NCBI GenBank assembly: GCA_964387345.1
Contig: CAYLWI010000001.1
Span: 47,525-111,524 of the forward strand
DNA from: an uncultured Eubacterium sp.
Lineage (GTDB): Bacteria; Bacillota; Clostridia; Lachnospirales; Lachnospiraceae
Direction: 5' to 3'
Length of the DNA: 64,000 nt
A model generated the notes under the pieces. It did not search any database and was not told the origin of the DNA. It saw nothing but the letters and a program-made list of their open reading frames with translations. Position numbers and translations under genes: made by a program. Numbering within the stretch: position 1 is the stretch's first letter; every line of letters starts with the position of its first letter. Shown piece by piece: positions 23,693 through 52,520 of this stretch.

Positions 23693-25120
23693 ATGGAAAG
23701 TATTATGAAAGAGTTTGCCGTAAGCCTGGATCCAGGCAGCAGAAAACCATTATATGAGCAGATTTACGAGGCTGTTCGTAACGCTATTCTCAGCGGGCAC
23801 ATTTCCTGCGGGGAGAAGCTGCCCTCTACCCGGTCTGAGGCGGCGTTTCTCTCCTGCAGCAGAAGCACCGTGGAGCTGGCTTACGGGCAGCTTTTTTCTG
23901 AGGGATACATTGAGTCGCAGCCCTGCCGGGGATATTATGTCTGTGATGTCCGGGAACTGTATCATCTGACGGATGTGACGCCGGAGCCCGATATTCCTGT
24001 TACCGGGACAGGGGATGACAGGACGGAATATAAGGTGGATTTTTCCCCCAACGGGACAGAATTCGCCGGGTTCCCCTTTGGAGCCATGGGGAAGATCATG
24101 AGGAATCTCATGCTGGATGAGGGAGAAAACATATTAAAGACAGGGGATTTTTTCGGAGATCGGGAACTCCGGCAGGCTATCTGTGACTATCTCTATCAGG
24201 CCAGAAGCGTCAACTGCTCGCCGGAGCAGATTGTCATCGGCGCGGGGAATGGGTATCTTCAGATTCTTCTTTCCCAGGTTCTGGGTATCCGTCATAAAGT
24301 TGCAATGGAATCCCCCACCTATCTCCAGGCCTTTGCCGCTTTTCGGAATATTGGTTATCCGGTGGAAGAAATTGCCATGGACAGGGAGGGGATGCGGACA
24401 GACTGTCTGGAGAAGACAGAAGCGGATATTGCTTATGTGATGCCGTCCCATCAGTTCCCCATGGGGACGGTTATGCCAATGAAACGTCGTCTGGAGCTTT
24501 TGAACTGGGCGGTGAAGGAGGAAGGCCGGTATATTATTGAGGATGATTATGACAGCGAGTTCCGGTATCGCGGGAAGCCGGTTCCGGCTCTCCAGGGAAT
24601 GGACCGGGCCGGACGGGTGATCTATCTGGGAACCTTTTCCCGCAGTATTGCCCCGGCTGTCCGCGTCAGTTATCTGGTGCTCCCTGCGCATCTGGTTACT
24701 CCGTTCCGGACTAAATGCGGGTTCTGCTCCTGCACGGTATCGAATATTATGCAGCAGACCATTTTCCGCTTTATGAAGGAGGGATATTTTGAGAAGAATC
24801 TGAACCGGAGAAGGGGCATTTATAAAGCGAAGCATGATTATATTCTGGGTGAACTCCGGAAATGCTTCTGGGTAAAGAAAATCTGGGGAGAAAATGCAGG
24901 TCTTCATCTTCTGGCAGCGGTGGATACGGAATTGGAGGAAAAAGAACTGATCAGAATCTGTGGGGAAAGAGGAATCCGTCTTTACGGATTGTCAGAATAT
25001 TTTCTGAGTGGAAAATCAGCTTTCCAGGATCCGGTTTTCCTGTTCGGGTACGGCGGCCTGAACCAGGAGAAGATTTCAGAAGGACTGGAAGAGATTGGAA
25101 AGGTGGTGCGCAAATGGTAA
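23693..25120 (+). CDS. MocR/GabR-family regulator (GntR wHTH + aminotransferase-like domain)
   Basis: LYEQIYE...GEKLPSTR wHTH; TPSHQFP-like MPSHQFPMG, IEDDYDSEFRY. Confidence 0.92.
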   Translation: MESIMKEFAVSLDPGSRKPLYEQIYEAVRNAILSGHISCGEKLPSTRSEAAFLSCSRSTVELAYGQLFSEGYIESQPCRGYYVCDVRELYHLTDVTPEPDIPVTGTGDDRTEYKVDFSPNGTEFAGFPFGAMGKIMRNLMLDEGENILKTGDFFGDRELRQAICDYLYQARSVNCSPEQIVIGAGNGYLQILLSQVLGIRHKVAMESPTYLQAFAAFRNIGYPVEEIAMDREGMRTDCLEKTEADIAYVMPSHQFPMGTVMPMKRRLELLNWAVKEEGRYIIEDDYDSEFRYRGKPVPALQGMDRAGRVIYLGTFSRSIAPAVRVSYLVLPAHLVTPFRTKCGFCSCTVSNIMQQTIFRFMKEGYFEKNLNRRRGIYKAKHDYILGELRKCFWVKKIWGENAGLHLLAAVDTELEEKELIRICGERGIRLYGLSEYFLSGKSAFQDPVFLFGYGGLNQEKISEGLEEIGKVVRKW

Positions 25121-25152: not shown

Positions 25153-25223
25153 AAGGAAAGCCTGTGAGTAAACGGTGTTCTGATAACGGAAACTGTGAGA
25201 GAAATGCGGAGGAGATGTTTGTG

Positions 25224-25724
25224 ATGAGAAGACAGGTTCTTTCATTATTAGTGGAAAATACATCGGGAGTAGTCAGCCATATTTCCGGACTGTTTTCCCG
25301 TCGCGGATATAATATTGACAGTTTTTCTGCCGGAGTGACAGCGGATGACCGTTTTACACGGGTGACAGTAGTGGCCAGAGGCGAAGATCAGGTGCTGGAG
25401 CAGATCCGCAAGCAGCTTGCAAAGCTGGAGGATGTTGTGGATATCAAGGAGCTGAAGCCGGACGAGTCTGTCTGCCGTGAGCTGGTTCTGATCAAGCTCC
25501 GTGCGAAACCGGAGGACCGTCAGAATATTCTCTCTGTCGCGAATATTTTCAGAGCCAATATTATCGATGTCAGCAGTGATTCCATGGTGATTGAGCTGAC
25601 CGGAGATCAGAGCAAGCTGAGGGCATTCATTGATCTTGTAAAAGATTATGACATCCTCGAACTGGCGAGAACCGGTGAGACCGGCCTGAGCCGCGGCGAT
25701 AAGGATGTTAAAATAATATTATAA
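25224..25724 (+). CDS. ilvN: Acetolactate synthase small regulatory subunit
   Basis: LSLLVENTSGVV..ISGLFSRRGYNIDS ACT domain; ELARTG C-terminus. Confidence 0.93.
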   Translation: MRRQVLSLLVENTSGVVSHISGLFSRRGYNIDSFSAGVTADDRFTRVTVVARGEDQVLEQIRKQLAKLEDVVDIKELKPDESVCRELVLIKLRAKPEDRQNILSVANIFRANIIDVSSDSMVIELTGDQSKLRAFIDLVKDYDILELARTGETGLSRGDKDVKIIL

Positions 25725-25728
25725 CTAA

Positions 25729-26778
<1,050 letters not shown>

Positions 26779-26814
26779 AAGCAGATTTGTTCTTCTTAAA
26801 TTATATTCCGGAGA

Positions 26815-26850
26815 GGGCTGATGTGTGGGGATTCATGCATCAGTCCTTTT
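26815..26850 (+). terminator. Terminator after ilvC
   Basis: GGGCTGATGTG...CATGCATCAGTCC followed by TTTT. Confidence 0.65.
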
Positions 26851-26904
26851 CATTTCCTATCAGTTTGTGCTATACTAGGGACACTGAGTGAATGACAGGA
26901 GGTT

Positions 26905-27387
26905 GTGAAAGTGGGAAAAGTTTTCAGATTTCATACAGATGTGGATACGGATCAGATTATTGCGTCACAGTATCTTTTGTATCCCAGCGTTGATGAGATG
27001 AAGGCGCATGCCTTTGAATCCCTGGACAAGAGCTTTGCTTCAAAGGTACAGCCCGGGGATTTTGTGGTCGCCAATGAGAATTTCGGCTGCGGTTCTTCCA
27101 GGGAGCAGGCGCCAGCAGTGCTGAAAGCTCTGGGCGTAAAGGCGGTCGTCGCGAAATCCTTTGCCCGGATTTTTTACCGGAACGCCATCAATATCGGACT
27201 GCCGGTGATTATCAGCAAGGATCTGTACGATCATGTTTCGGCTGGAGATGAGATGGAACTGTCGCTGACAGACGGTGTTGCCGTCTGCAATGGACAGGAG
27301 TTTGTATGTACGAAGCTGCCGCCCTATATGCAGAGTATTCTGGACCAGGGCGGTCTGATCGCGTCATTGAATAAGGAAGAGGATTAG
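26905..27387 (+). CDS. LeuD/HacB/DmdB-family aconitase-type small subunit, copy 1
   Basis: [36 protein letters not shown]. Confidence 0.9.
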   Translation: MKVGKVFRFHTDVDTDQIIASQYLLYPSVDEMKAHAFESLDKSFASKVQPGDFVVANENFGCGSSREQAPAVLKALGVKAVVAKSFARIFYRNAINIGLPVIISKDLYDHVSAGDEMELSLTDGVAVCNGQEFVCTKLPPYMQSILDQGGLIASLNKEED

Positions 27388-27403
27388 AGAGGAGATATTC
27401 AGC

Positions 27404-28654
27404 ATGGGAATGACAATGGCTGAGAAAATTATAGCGGCTGCTGCCGGAGTACCGGAAGTAAAGCCGGGCGACATACATACGGTGGAAGTGGACCGCCTTA
27501 TGAGTAATGACGGAACGACCCACCTCACCATTGATATGTATAATAACAAGTTAAAGCATCCTCATATTGCGGATGTGAGTAAGCTGGTGTGGATTGTGGA
27601 TCATAATGTGCCCGCTGACAGTCCGAAAACTGCGGCGTCCCATAAGAAAATGCGTGATTTCGCGAAAGAGCACGGGATTACTTTCTATGAGGGAAGGGGC
27701 GTCTGCCATCAGATCATGATGGAGAATCATGTCCGCCCCGGCGAACTGATTTTCGGCGCTGACAGCCACACCTGCGCTTACGGCGCGCTGGGAGCTTTCG
27801 GAACAGGCGTGGGATGTACGGACTATCTCTACGCTATGGTAACCGGAAAGTCCTGGCTGCTGGTGCCGGAAACAATCCGCTTCAATCTTACCGGGAAGCT
27901 GCCGGAAGGCGTGTACGCCAGGGATCTGATTCTTACCATTATCGGGCGGATCGGCGCGAACGGAGCGAATTATAAAGCCATGGAGTTTGGCGGCGGGGGA
28001 CTGAAGACTCTTTCCATGAGCGACCGGATTGCCATCTGCAATCTCTGTGTGGAGGCCGGAGCAAAGACGGCGCTTATGGAAGTGGACGATGTGGCCATGA
28101 ACTATCTGAAGGAGAGGGGCCGGGAGCCGAAGCATCTGTTTGCCAGTGATCCGGACGCGGTCTATGAGGAAGAGTATGAGGTGGATCTGAGCGCCATTAC
28201 TCCGATTGTGGCAAAGCCCCATTTTGTAGATAATGTGGTAAATGCCAGAGAATGCGCGGGCATAAAAATAGACGAGGCGTTTCTCGGATCCTGCAATAAC
28301 GGCCGTCTGGAGGATCTCCGGGTGGGAGCAGAGCTCCTGAAGGGACGCAGGGTACATCCGCGGGTGCGTTTCCTTGTAGTTCCCGCCAGTCAGGAGGTTT
28401 ACCGGAAGGCCCTGGAGGAAGGACTGATTCAGATTTTTATGGATGCAGGAGCCATTGTTATGAATGCCAACTGCAGCGTCTGCTGGGGAAGCTGTCAGGG
28501 CGTGATCGGAAAGGATGAGACTCTGATCAGCACCGGAACACGTAATTTCAAGGGCCGCGCAGGAGATCCGGATTCCTTCATTTATCTGGCGTCAGCGGCG
28601 ACAGTTACAGCTTCCGCCATCAGAGGAGAGATCACTACGGCAGATAAGCTGTAG
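27404..28654 (+). CDS. LeuC/HacA/DmdA-family aconitase-type large subunit, copy 1
   Basis: [29 protein letters not shown]; three Fe-S cysteines present. Confidence 0.9.
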
Positions 28655-28692
28655 GCAGACAGAACGGAAATAACAGAGAAGGAAAGGAAAAA

Positions 28693-29184
28693 ATGGAACA
28701 GTTTACTGGAAAAGTATGGGTACTTGGAGACGATATTGATACAGATATTATCATGCCTACCGAGTATCTGGCATTGGAAACCGTAGAAGATATGAAACCC
28801 TATGCATTTTCTCCCCTGAGACCCGGACTGGCAGCGCAGATCGGGCCGGGAGATATTATCGTGGCCGGAAAGAATTTCGGCTGCGGATCCTCCAGGGAGC
28901 AGGCGCCGGAAGTCATTAAGGCTTTGGGAATCCGCTGTGTGATCGCAAAATCCTATGCCAGGATTTTCTTCCGCAATTCTATCAATAACGGACTGCTGCT
29001 GATTGAGAATGACAGACTGCAGGCGGACGTGAAAGAGGGAGATGAGATCACGGTTACGGTGGGAGAAAAAATTTCCCTGGGTGAGAGCGATTATCCGGTT
29101 GCGGCTCTGCCGGAGAATCTCCTTGAGATTATCAACGCCGGAGGTCTGGTGAAGGCCATGCGCAGACGCAACGGCCTGGACTAA
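28693..29184 (+). CDS. LeuD/HacB/DmdB-family small subunit, copy 2
   Basis: [33 protein letters not shown]. Confidence 0.9.
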
Positions 29185-29200
29185 GGAAGGAGGAAAGTAT

Positions 29201-30451
29201 ATGGGTGCGACCATGATTGAAAAGATCATCCGGAATCATGTGAAGCATGAGGTAAAGCCCGGAGATATTGTCACTGTAGATGTGGACCGGGTGATGATCC
29301 ACGATATTTTTATTCCCTTTGTGGCGGAGAAGTTTGAGGAGATGGGCTTTACGAAGCTCTGGGATCCGGACCGGGCGGTTCTGATCTATGATCATCTGGT
29401 TCCTGCCAGTCAGGTGGATGATACCCGTCATTTCCGTGTGGGGAATGCGTTTGCTGAGAAATATGGGATGGAGCATGTACATCGCTCTGACGGAATCTGC
29501 CATCAGTTAATGACGGAGGCCGGATATGTGAAGCCCGGCGATATTGTATTCGGCACAGACAGTCATACGACAACTTACGGCTGTGTGGGCGCTTTTTCTT
29601 CCGGTATCGGCTATACGGAGATGGCCGGTATTCTGGGAACAGGAACACTCTGGGTGAGGGTACCCGAGACCATTAAGGTTACGATTAACGGAAAGCTTCC
29701 GGAAAATGTGACCTCCAAGGATGTGATCTTAAAACTGATCGGTGACCTGGGTGCGGACGGAGCTACTTATATGGCATTGGAATTCCATGGGGATGCGGTA
29801 GAGCAGATGTCGGTGGCCAGCCGCATGACCATGTCTAATATGGCTGTGGAAGCGGGGGCGAAATGCGCGCTGTTCGCGCCGGATGAAAAAACGGCGGAAT
29901 ACTGTGAAATCACTCTGAGTGAAGAACAGAAGGCTCTGAAGGCGGACGCGGATGCTTCTTATATCAGAGAGATTACATACCGGGCGGAAGATCTGGCTCC
30001 TGTGATGGCCTGTCCGTCCCAGGTGGATAAGATCCGGCCGGTTACGGAGCTGGAGGGTACGGAGATCGACCAGGTATTTATCGGCTCCTGCACCAACGGC
30101 CGTCTGGAGGATCTGATGGCGGCTGCTGAAATTCTGAAAGGAAAGCAGGTGGCTCCCTTTGTAAAGCTGATTGTAACTCCGGCCAGCCGTAAGGTTTATG
30201 ATGAAGCTGTTGAAAACGGAACCATGGCTGTGCTCGCGGAAGCCGGAGCTATTATTACGCATCCCGGCTGCGGTCTCTGCTGCGGAAGAACCGGCGGCAT
30301 TCTGACAGACGGTGAGAGAGTGGTTGCGACAAACAACAGGAATTTCCTGGGACGTATGGGAACGTCGAAGGTGGAGATTTATCTGGCGTCTCCGAAAACT
30401 GCGGCTGCCTGCGCGGCTGCCGGAAAAATCGTTCCGCCTGTCTGCGGATAA
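29201..30451 (+). CDS. LeuC/HacA/DmdA-family large subunit, copy 2
   Basis: HD, DH, HQ, DSHT, GSCTNGR, CGLCCG, NRNFLGRMG. Confidence 0.9.
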   Translation: MGATMIEKIIRNHVKHEVKPGDIVTVDVDRVMIHDIFIPFVAEKFEEMGFTKLWDPDRAVLIYDHLVPASQVDDTRHFRVGNAFAEKYGMEHVHRSDGICHQLMTEAGYVKPGDIVFGTDSHTTTYGCVGAFSSGIGYTEMAGILGTGTLWVRVPETIKVTINGKLPENVTSKDVILKLIGDLGADGATYMALEFHGDAVEQMSVASRMTMSNMAVEAGAKCALFAPDEKTAEYCEITLSEEQKALKADADASYIREITYRAEDLAPVMACPSQVDKIRPVTELEGTEIDQVFIGSCTNGRLEDLMAAAEILKGKQVAPFVKLIVTPASRKVYDEAVENGTMAVLAEAGAIITHPGCGLCCGRTGGILTDGERVVATNNRNFLGRMGTSKVEIYLASPKTAAACAAAGKIVPPVCG

Positions 30452-30619: not shown

Positions 30620-32110
30620 ATGGAGATTTTATACGCAAATACCCGCGATGCATCTGAGAAAGTGACTGCGTCCCAGGCGATTTTAAACGGTCTGGCGAAG
30701 GACGGCGGCCTGTATGTGCCTTCCGTCATTCCTGCCCTGGATATCCCGGTTGAGAAACTGGCGGAGATGAGTTATCAGGAAACCGCCTGCGCGGTGATGA
30801 GCCGGTTTCTTACAGATTTTACGGAGGAAGAGCTGAAGACCTGTATTGACAGGGCTTACGATTCCAAGTTTGATACGCCGGAGATTGCTCCGCTTGTTTA
30901 TGCGGACGGCGCCTGTTATCTGGAGCTGTTCCATGGACCTACAATTGCGTTCAAGGATATGGCGCTTTCTATTCTGCCCCATCTTCTGATTACATCAGCG
31001 CGTAAGAATCATGTGACCAATGACATTGTGATTCTGACTGCGACTTCCGGTGATACCGGGAAAGCTGCGCTGGCCGGATTTGCTGATGTGAAAGGAACAA
31101 AAATAATCGTGTTCTATCCCAAAAACGGCGTCAGCCCGATCCAGGAGAAGCAGATGGTGACCCAGAAGGGAGATAACACCTTTGTGGCTGGAATTACGGG
31201 GAACTTTGATCAGGCCCAGACCGGCGTGAAGAAGATGTTCTCGGATCCGGAGCTGAAGGCAGAGCTGAATGCGGCGGGATATCAGTTTTCTTCTGCCAAT
31301 TCCATTAATATCGGGCGGCTGGTTCCCCAGATTGTTTACTATGTGTATGCATATGCGAAGATGTATGCCAATGGGGAGATCGGGAAGGATGATCCCATTA
31401 ATGTGGTGGTTCCCACCGGCAATTTTGGGAATATTCTGGCCGCTTTTTACGCAAAGAATATGGGACTTCCCATTGCGAAGCTGATCTGCGCTTCCAATGA
31501 GAACAAAGTACTGTATGATTTCTTTTCGACAGGTGTTTATGATAAAAACAGGGAGTTTATTCTGACTTCCTCACCTTCCATGGATATTCTGATTTCCAGT
31601 AATCTGGAGCGCCTGATTTACCGGATCGCGGGTGAGGATGCGGAGAAGAACGCGGAACTGATGCGCGAGCTTTCCACGGACGGAAAGTATACGATTACTC
31701 CGGAGATGCGCGGGAAGCTGGCAGTATTTTATGGTAATTATGCTACGGAAGCGGAGACAGCAGCGGTGATCCGTTCTCTTTATGAGAATACCGGATATGT
31801 CATTGACACGCATACGGCGGTTGCGGCAGGCGTATATAAAAAATATGTGGAGGAGACAGGTGATCAGACAAAGACAGTGATCGCTTCCACCGCAAGCCCC
31901 TTCAAGTTCACCAGAAGCGTTATGGACGCAATTGATGAAAAGTATGATACAATGAGCGATTTTGAGCTGGCGGATGAGCTTTCCCGGATTGCGAATGTGA
32001 AGGTGCCCCAGGCAATTGATGAGATCCGCAGTGCTCCGGTGCTTCATAAGACGGTATGTGCGCCGGAGGAGATGCCGGAGACGGTAAAATCATTTCTTCA
32101 CATACAGTAG
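30620..32110 (+). CDS. thrC: Threonine synthase
   Basis: GLAKDGGLY, ELFHGPTIAFKD (PLP lysine), ATSGDTG, NSINIGRL, VPTGNFG. Confidence 0.96.
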   Translation: MEILYANTRDASEKVTASQAILNGLAKDGGLYVPSVIPALDIPVEKLAEMSYQETACAVMSRFLTDFTEEELKTCIDRAYDSKFDTPEIAPLVYADGACYLELFHGPTIAFKDMALSILPHLLITSARKNHVTNDIVILTATSGDTGKAALAGFADVKGTKIIVFYPKNGVSPIQEKQMVTQKGDNTFVAGITGNFDQAQTGVKKMFSDPELKAELNAAGYQFSSANSINIGRLVPQIVYYVYAYAKMYANGEIGKDDPINVVVPTGNFGNILAAFYAKNMGLPIAKLICASNENKVLYDFFSTGVYDKNREFILTSSPSMDILISSNLERLIYRIAGEDAEKNAELMRELSTDGKYTITPEMRGKLAVFYGNYATEAETAAVIRSLYENTGYVIDTHTAVAAGVYKKYVEETGDQTKTVIASTASPFKFTRSVMDAIDEKYDTMSDFELADELSRIANVKVPQAIDEIRSAPVLHKTVCAPEEMPETVKSFLHIQ

Positions 32111-45079: not shown

Positions 45080-45274
45080 TTCAGCAGATTCCTGGGGTGT
45101 ACGAGAGCCTTGCTATTTTGAACCTACATTTACGTTTATGGGACTCTTATATTGCTGGACGGATGTCAGGCCGCCTCCTCGTATCAGCGGAAGGCAGAAG
45201 GACAGTTGCGGACACCCACCTGGCTTTTCGCTAGGCGTCAAAATTGCAGGTACGGCACTTTGGGAATTGCTGAA
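45080..45274 (+). ncRNA. ssrS: 6S RNA
   Basis: About 195 nt; closing stem TTCAGCAGATTCC/GGGAATTGCTGAA; 3' GGACACCCACCTG...GGCGTCAAAA...TACGGCACTTTGGG resembles Firmicute 6S; own promoter and downstream terminator. Confidence 0.82.
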
Positions 45275-52211: not shown

Positions 52212-52520
52212 AAAAAGGCTGTGAAGATGTCAGTAGGCAGTCCTTCGGATTACAGAGAGGATATGTGAGGCGCTGAGAGCATATCTAAGGAAAGAGAACT
52301 GCTGAATTTCCCATCGGAGCTTCTGATCTGAACATATGGATGCCGTCTGTACCAGAAAGGGTTATTTTTATCCGGATATGGGGAGATGGAAATCAGAAGA
52401 GATAGTAGGATCAGACGTTGCCATGCACGTTACGCGTAAAAGAGCCCGGCTTCTGCCGGGAAAATGGGTGGTACCGCGGATATCAGACTTCGTCCCTTTG
52501 TGGATGAGGTTTTTTTGTTT
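52212..52520 (+). promoter_or_regulatory. Phe T-box riboswitch
   Basis: Stem I with AGTA, AGAGAG, GCTGAGA motifs; specifier GAA-T-TTC (52308-52310); T-box AAAATGGGTGGTACCGCG (52461-52478); terminator with T tract. Confidence 0.92.

Follow-up and report, generated by a model that had tools for sequence, protein, structure and literature searches.

A cassette of two divergent LeuD-LeuC-type pairs most likely replaces isopropylmalate isomerase in a subset of Lachnospiraceae

Background

The described enzymes that are most relevant to the genes analyzed here are the canonical clostridial-type LeuCD (TIGR02083/TIGR02084), which is encoded as a single pair in the large-then-small order; the isopropylmalate (IPM)/citramalate isomerase of Methanocaldococcus jannaschii (M. 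jannaschii; MJ0499/MJ1277; PDB 4kp1, 4nqy, 3vba), likewise a single pair, encoded by dispersed genes, that serves leucine synthesis along with citramalate-route isoleucine synthesis; and the methanogen homoaconitase HacAB (MJ1003/MJ1271; PDB 4kp2, 2pkp). In aconitase-type isomerases, the alkene 'flips' inside one active site. In fungi, aconitase and homoaconitase split homocitrate isomerization between them (Fazius et al. 2012, PMC3556520), providing a model in which two enzymes serve one formal isomerization, a dehydration followed by a rehydration. Here we analyze a four-gene cassette, D1-C1-D2-C2, that is contained in a 64,000-nucleotide stretch of DNA (hereafter, the window) from an uncultured Eubacterium sp. 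(assembly GCA_964387345.1). The window corresponds to positions 47525-111524 of contig C1 (CAYLWI010000001.1; not to be confused with protein C1) in a Lachnospiraceae genome of 2.2 Mb. The cassette encodes two divergent pairs of LeuD-LeuC-type proteins which, judging from sequence and genomic context, most likely represent a widespread replacement of IPM isomerase by two heterodimers. Databases label all four proteins plainly as '3-isopropylmalate dehydratase subunit', and a literature search found no description of paired leuDC cassettes.

The cassette proteins and their closest relatives

The four open reading frames of the cassette are intact and lie on the forward strand, with intergenic gaps of 16, 38 and 16 nucleotides. 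The first pair consists of D1, a small (swivel-domain) subunit (26905-27387; 160 amino acids; Pfam Aconitase_C), and C1, a large Fe-S subunit (27404-28654; 416 amino acids; Pfam Aconitase); the second pair consists of the small subunit D2 (28693-29184; 163 amino acids; Aconitase_C) and the large Fe-S subunit C2 (29201-30451; 416 amino acids; Aconitase). The identity is 40% between C1 and C2 and 42% between D1 and D2, in agreement with an earlier reading of the window, made from the sequence alone (the sequence-only reading), in which two divergent LeuD-LeuC-family pairs in tandem were recognized. The listed start codon of D1, GTG at 26905, is located merely 2 nucleotides after an AGGAGG box; a second GTG, at 26911, is spaced 8 nucleotides from this box, agrees with the N-terminus of the orthologs (MGKVFRF...) and is the more likely start.

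Alignment of the large subunits shows that C1 and C2 both retain the three Cys ligands of the [4Fe-4S] cluster as well as the DH, H, DSH, N..E and RNF.GR motifs, and GSSRE is retained in both small subunits. The three Fe-S cysteines and the motifs listed in the sequence-only reading were all found in the protein sequences, namely, SNDGT, ARD, GSCNN, CSVCWG and GTRNF in C1, and IHDIF, SKD, GSCTN (within GSCTNGR), CGLCCG and NNRNF (within NNRNFLGR) in C2, which also contains DSHT. The departures of C1 from the family pattern are an Asn in place of His/Gln in the first motif, which is common to canonical LeuC, and a Thr in place of the Asn that precedes RNF. The possibility that the His-to-Asn replacement inactivates C1 was considered and rejected because the same Asn is present in the canonical LeuC of the family.

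The small-subunit loop that sets substrate specificity (PMC7308503) is YLLY in D1 and YLAL in D2, as quoted previously, and neither sequence includes the Arg of homoaconitase; the reference loops given in the sequence-only reading, YLVY in the small subunit of the M. jannaschii IPM isomerase (PDB 3vba) and YLRT in homoaconitase (2pkp), proved to be correct as well. Across orthologs, the loops are fixed and distinct, with YLL[FY]P in D1 and YLAL[KE] in D2, as opposed to YLN[ST] in canonical LeuD. The sequences of the D1 and D2 loops suggest that both would accommodate a hydrophobic side chain.

Comparison with protein family models places the cassette in the archaeal-type subfamily and below the threshold of every model for a specific enzyme. 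The large-subunit subfamily models (TIGR02086, TIGR01343 and PRK00402) were matched with 525/524/491 bits by C1 and 546/533/518 bits by C2, above the cutoffs of 385/386/410; with PRK00402, the scores are 525 bits for C1 and 546.5 bits for C2. The small subunits match LEUD_arch (TIGR02087) with 177.7 bits (D1) and 168.6 bits (D2), against a cutoff of 108.95. None of the four proteins reaches an equivalog cutoff for LeuCD, homoaconitase or aconitase. With the canonical LEU2 model (TIGR02083; cutoff 610.65), C1 and C2 score 451.6 and 441.1, and with the canonical leud model (TIGR02084; cutoff 245.85), D1 and D2 score 161.7 and 144.1; as a control, canonical LeuC proteins from congeners and from another family score 685 and 740 on LEU2, and the matching LeuD proteins 242 and 275 on leud. 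The scores with HacA_Meth are 429 and 445 (cutoff 550), those with the HacB models including HacB_Meth are 138-166 (cutoff 230), and those with the aconitase model PRK07229 are 340 and 338 (cutoff 612).

The best match of solved structure for all four proteins is the M. jannaschii IPM/citramalate isomerase (4nqy for C1 and C2, with 396 and 407 bits, respectively). The D1 loop YLL[FY] resembles its YLVY, C2 shares with it the 'HD' motif, and C1, C2 and canonical LeuC all group with this enzyme rather than with homoaconitase; unlike the M. jannaschii system, the genome analyzed here encodes two pairs and no citramalate synthase. The resemblance to HacAB includes the matches to the subfamily models hacA_fam and LEUD_arch and, in C1, the shared 'DGTT' together with a one-residue deletion before the DSHT motif; however, the PDB scores are lower than those with the IPM isomerase, the loop Arg is missing, and the genome encodes no homocitrate synthase. 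The cassette is like canonical LeuCD in superfamily, subunit sizes, Fe-S ligands and catalytic motifs, in the slot that it shares with the leuCD of congeners and in its partner genes, the long-form leuA and leuB, and C1 also has the 'ND' variant of the first substrate-binding motif in common with the canonical enzyme. In contrast to canonical LeuCD, the cassette consists of two pairs in the small-then-large order, with only 40-45% sequence identity to the canonical proteins and with hydrophobic loops. The link of the cassette to the single-step LeuCD-like hydratases (2,3-dimethylmalate dehydratase DmdAB and maleate hydratase) is limited to the name of the TIGR02087 subfamily, 'LeuD/DmdB family'.

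The cassette and canonical leuCD as alternatives

The observation in the sequence-only reading that the window contains neither leuA nor leuB is correct, yet both genes are present elsewhere in the genome; Lachnospiraceae scatter their leu genes, so that this observation is no sign of a different pathway. The sole LeuA-family synthase, of the long form, is encoded 4.2 kb before the start of the window (contig C1:41325-43319), the single leuB is located on contig C20 beside ilvD and ilvB, and an IlvA-type threonine dehydratase is encoded on contig C170. A check for canonical leuABCD across this 99% complete genome detected leuA and leuB and no second LeuCD besides the cassette: the aconitase family is represented by C1, C2, one 760-amino-acid PRK11413-type hydratase and nothing else. 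Given that every other enzyme of the leucine pathway is encoded in this genome, either the cassette provides the isomerase or the pathway lacks LeuCD, and it appears likely that in leucine synthesis the IPM isomerase step is carried out by the cassette proteins.

Species of the same GTDB genus, in which the respective loci were examined, fall into two groups. In 15 species, the gene order is ilvN-ilvC-D1-C1-D2-C2-thrC, and the C1 orthologs are 86-96% identical to C1 of the window; in the 9 species of the other group, the order is ilvN-ilvC-leuC-leuD-thrC, and the single LeuC is about 45% identical to C1. The flanks of the slot, which in the window are formed by ilvN (25164-25724) and ilvC (25741-26778) on one side and thrC (30620-32110; TIGR00260, 238 bits) on the other, all on the forward strand, with ilvN and ilvC passing their equivalog models, are orthologous in both groups, and ilvC is 92-99% identical. 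The flanks correspond and the single pair is identified by its LEU2 scores as canonical LeuCD; one ilvC|thrC slot is thus filled either by the cassette or by leuCD. This swap within a single genus is a clean natural experiment.

The same alternation is seen at the scale of the family, which was surveyed by analyzing one genome per genus in 300 Lachnospiraceae genera. An ortholog of C1 (58-100% identity) was detected in 46 of these genera, that is, about one in seven, and 41 of the 46 cassette genomes encode no LeuC-like protein beyond C1 and C2. In about 227 of the other genomes, the sole LeuC is of the canonical type and is 44-47% identical to C1. Among the cassette genomes with additional LeuC-like hits, G295 reflects an assembly split, and G108, G185 and G308 contain other, large-then-small paralogs; G104 alone among the 300 genera encodes both the cassette and a true canonical leuCD. 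The two groups of genomes differ at the isomerase step only, with the same long-form LeuA complement in cassette and canonical genomes.

Uniform annotation of these proteins as dehydratases hides the swap of a standard enzyme for a two-enzyme cassette in gut and rumen Lachnospiraceae. The cassette block spans 46 of the 300 sampled genera and hundreds of metagenome-assembled genomes, in which metabolic reconstructions would count a duplicate or suspect a missing pathway.

Conservation, phylogeny and pairing of the subunits

Except where a contig ends within the cassette, the order D1-C1-D2-C2 is kept in all 80 loci from named genomes, among them Hominiventricola aquisgranensis, with a C1 that is 86% identical, and Candidatus Choladocola. 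The same order was found in 11 more genera, at identities as low as 58%. The genes around the cassette vary and mostly have housekeeping functions, with recurrent links to branched-chain amino acid synthesis: ilvN-ilvC upstream, thrC downstream and, in G049, leuB directly downstream. The ratio of nonsynonymous to synonymous substitution rates (dN/dS) is 0.02-0.10 for all four cassette genes, the same range as for ilvC and thrC, which indicates strong purifying selection.

In the maximum likelihood tree, C1, C2 and canonical LeuC form three clades, each with 100% support, which join the M. jannaschii IPM isomerase in an unresolved polytomy, with homoaconitase outside. A recent tandem duplication as the origin of the cassette was rejected given the low identity of C1 and C2 (40%) and the lack of a sister relationship between their clades. 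The topologies of the C1 and C2 subtrees match, which implies that the cassette travels as a unit. No characterized outgroup of C2 was found among 1.8 billion representatives, only fusion proteins and a relative linked to leuB.

Natural fusion proteins settle how the subunits pair. A D1-C1 fusion (P0097) was identified, and locus L127:5988-9785 (GCA_964370045.1) encodes two adjacent fusions, D1C1 (589 amino acids) and D2C2 (594 amino acids), with the small domain at the N-terminus. Because of these fusions, we consider the pairing of D1 with C1 and of D2 with C2, as read from the sequences, to be settled.

Two unusual arrangements stand apart from the common pattern. On the metagenome contigs L125 (6308-10366) and L126, from a distant relative, a gene for a decayed C1-like protein is followed by genes for a D2-like protein and an intact C2-like protein (49% identity) and then by leuB. 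In the decayed protein (382 amino acids), which lacks a dedicated small subunit, the three cysteines are intact and the DSH and RNF..GR motifs are gone; the protein may represent either a pseudo-enzyme or a remnant of the cassette. In G104 (L104:155-16624), the most divergent cassette (58-59% identity) belongs to a same-strand cluster with genes for a ketosynthase, a reductase, an acyl carrier protein and two further proteins, one thioesterase-like and one with the hotdog fold; nearby, a third LeuCD-like pair is encoded beside a NifV-like synthase of 391 amino acids, and the canonical leuCD is located elsewhere in the genome. The composition of this cluster suggests that it may encode a specialized-metabolite pathway that uses 2-oxoacid elongation. 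Taken together, L125 and G104 indicate that the lineages of the two pairs can have separable fates and other uses.

A proposed role for two enzymes in one isomerization

The gene products, members of the archaeal-type LeuC/LeuD family, are predicted to form two heterodimeric hydro-lyases with [4Fe-4S] clusters. The cassette has displaced leuCD in roughly 15% of Lachnospiraceae genera, and the two enzymes would act between LeuA and LeuB, converting 2-isopropylmalate via 2-isopropylmaleate to 3-isopropylmalate. The assertion of the sequence-only reading that these are two different enzymes holds: given the distinct clades with 100% support and the distinct conserved specificity loops, the two pairs are anciently diverged and separately conserved and, very probably, are not redundant. 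On the whole, the explanation that fits best, and that we regard as probable, with considerable room for doubt, is a replacement of IPM isomerase by two heterodimers, perhaps with a division of labor. The division of labor is preferred because both pairs are kept in an apparent single operon, under strong constraint, in a pathway with only one synthase and one dehydrogenase.

The form that this division would take can be suggested only tentatively. By analogy with the fungal enzymes, it is conceivable, although somewhat short of an even chance, that the pairs split the two half-reactions, one catalyzing the dehydration and the other the rehydration; sequential dehydration and hydration steps had already been considered in the sequence-only reading and are still a live idea. 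Under this scheme, one heterodimer would be specialized for dehydrating 2-isopropylmalate and the other would hydrate the flipped isopropylmaleate, so that each handles one substrate binding mode and the alkene is passed between enzymes of one operon instead of flipping in a single site. The fungal system differs in its substrate and in the branch of the superfamily involved, and its enzymes are not encoded together; its likeness to the cassette is one that we infer. The stricter version, in which IPM isomerization obligatorily needs both pairs, with one converting 2-isopropylmalate to 2-isopropylmaleate only and the other converting 2-isopropylmaleate to 3-isopropylmalate only, seems rather unlikely. 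If a half-reaction split is confirmed, this would be the first case of divided aconitase-type isomerization in the bacterial leucine pathway and would provide a handle on the substrate flip.

Several observations weigh against a two-enzyme leucine isomerase in one respect or another. The full catalytic set is present in both pairs, with no sign in the sequences of restriction to one half-reaction, and the arrangement in L125 raises the possibility that one pair may be enough. The presence of the G104 cassette in a genome with canonical leuCD implies that the cassette can serve a role outside leucine synthesis. The mutual exclusivity of the cassette and canonical leuCD in the 2x2 table of genera is significant by Fisher's test (p = 6e-33), a value that overstates the independence of the genera, which are related. 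Finally, no leucine T-box or other leucine-specific RNA was found upstream of the cassette in the window and 20 loci searched with Rfam, and a scan for T-box motifs upstream of all collected cassette loci gave no match.

Among the alternatives to a two-heterodimer IPM isomerase, the one that fares best, while still unlikely, is a split by substrate, in which one pair serves leucine synthesis and the other acts on (R)-citramalate/citraconate, in pyruvate-route isoleucine synthesis, or on longer 2-alkylmalates produced by a promiscuous LeuA. The bifunctional nature of the nearest solved enzyme, the IPM/citramalate isomerase of M. jannaschii, the consistent difference between the YLL[FY] and YLAL loops, the JGI name of both large subunits, '3-isopropylmalate/(R)-2-methylmalate dehydratase', and the plant small subunits that set different substrates (PMC7308503) would all be compatible with such a split. 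The synthases tell otherwise: 44 of 45 cassette genomes encode a long-form LeuA only, with no CimA-like or short LeuA, and 45 Lachnospiraceae with canonical leuCD have the same complement. The genome analyzed here encodes IlvA for isoleucine and has a single LeuB, and a split confined to the isomerase would be odd if one synthase and one dehydrogenase handled two substrates. A role as citramalate isomerase in particular was judged unlikely given the lack of CimA in 45 of 45 cassette genomes and in other Lachnospiraceae and the presence of IlvA in this genome. Should the substrate split nevertheless be true, abundant gut anaerobes would possess a hidden second route of 2-oxoacid elongation.

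Improbable, too, is the view put forward in the sequence-only reading, that the cassette, or at least one of its pairs, acts on an unidentified organic acid in a pathway other than branched-chain amino acid synthesis. The unrelated housekeeping neighbors at most cassette loci, the failure of either pair to reach an equivalog cutoff and the divergent G104 cassette, embedded in its acyl carrier protein/ketosynthase/thioesterase cluster in a genome that kept canonical leuCD, can be cited in its favor. It would, however, leave the cassette genomes with leuA and leuB but no isomerase. The claim that ordinary leucine synthesis is not involved is contradicted by the cassette being the only LeuCD-type enzyme in a genome with leuA, leuB, ilvA and ilvBNCD, by its position in the very slot that leuCD occupies in congeners, by the near-complete mutual exclusivity across genera and by the recurrent linkage to ilvNC, thrC or leuB in several other genera.

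Slightly less probable still is that the pairs are redundant isozymes, or that they form one obligate hetero-oligomer, C1D1C2D2, that shows no catalytic specialization. The complete motifs of both pairs, their location in one apparent operon and the survival of one pair beside leuB in L125, where the other large subunit has decayed, are in line with this possibility, whereas redundancy is difficult to reconcile with the maintenance of both pairs in more than 90 loci from at least 46 genera, at 40% mutual identity and dN/dS of 0.02-0.10, with specificity loops that are distinct and fixed.

The least probable alternative, that one pair is the IPM isomerase and the other the aconitase of the cell (citrate to isocitrate) for glutamate synthesis, was rejected: although the genome encodes two citrate synthases and isocitrate dehydrogenase with no PRK07229- or AcnA-type aconitase, and the cassette species of the genus lack the pair of Re-citrate synthase and aconitase that is found in some canonical-leuCD species, a PRK11413-type hydratase (760 amino acids) is found throughout the genus, in all species of either arrangement, as well as in 41 of the 45 cassette genomes, and the hydrophobic loops of both small subunits lack the Arg that would bind a third carboxylate. 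As a separate observation on citrate synthases (contigs C115:1117-2517 and C2:40254-41636), the usual complement of the cassette species in the genus is two Si-type enzymes without a Re-citrate-synthase-like protein of 464 amino acids, and the canonical-leuCD species have one Si-type and one Re-like enzyme, a link that is not exclusive across the family.

Upstream signals and other features

The sequence-only reading also assigned to the cassette a -10 element of its own after an ilvC terminator. A terminator-like hairpin with a 19-pair stem and a T-rich tail is indeed located 3' of ilvC (26810-26851, forward strand), together with a promoter-like site (26847-26876, forward strand) with TTTTCA, an 18-nucleotide spacer and TATACT preceded by TG, which amounts to 9 of 12 consensus matches and resembles an extended -10; both signals are consensus matches from pattern scans. 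The number of promoter-like sites in this region does not exceed the expectation from shuffled sequences, so this match is weak evidence for a promoter.

Directly 5' of ilvN, the window encodes a MocR/PdxR-like regulator (23693-25120) that combines a GntR helix-turn-helix with an aminotransferase-like domain and scores 501.7 bits with the PdxR model. The ilvN gene is separated from ilvB, which is found on another contig together with ilvD and leuB.

The LeuA protein encoded before the window combines two parts in one reading frame, a long-form 2-isopropylmalate synthase (residues 5-547) and a helix-turn-helix domain of the AraC type (residues 551-661). Orthologs that span the whole fusion (662-667 amino acids; 64-65% identity) are present in three other genera, and open reading frames of 663-743 amino acids are found in many Lachnospiraceae, often as the only LeuA; G005, the closest relative, has a LeuA protein that ends at 561 amino acids. 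The fusion may be an enzyme with a second role as a regulator that senses leucine, and the lack of a T-box upstream of the cassette could be explained in this way.

Elsewhere in the window, and unrelated to the cassette, matches at the Rfam gathering score correspond to a 6S RNA gene (45086-45270; 67.8 bits) and a T-box leader (52212-52500; 107.6 bits).

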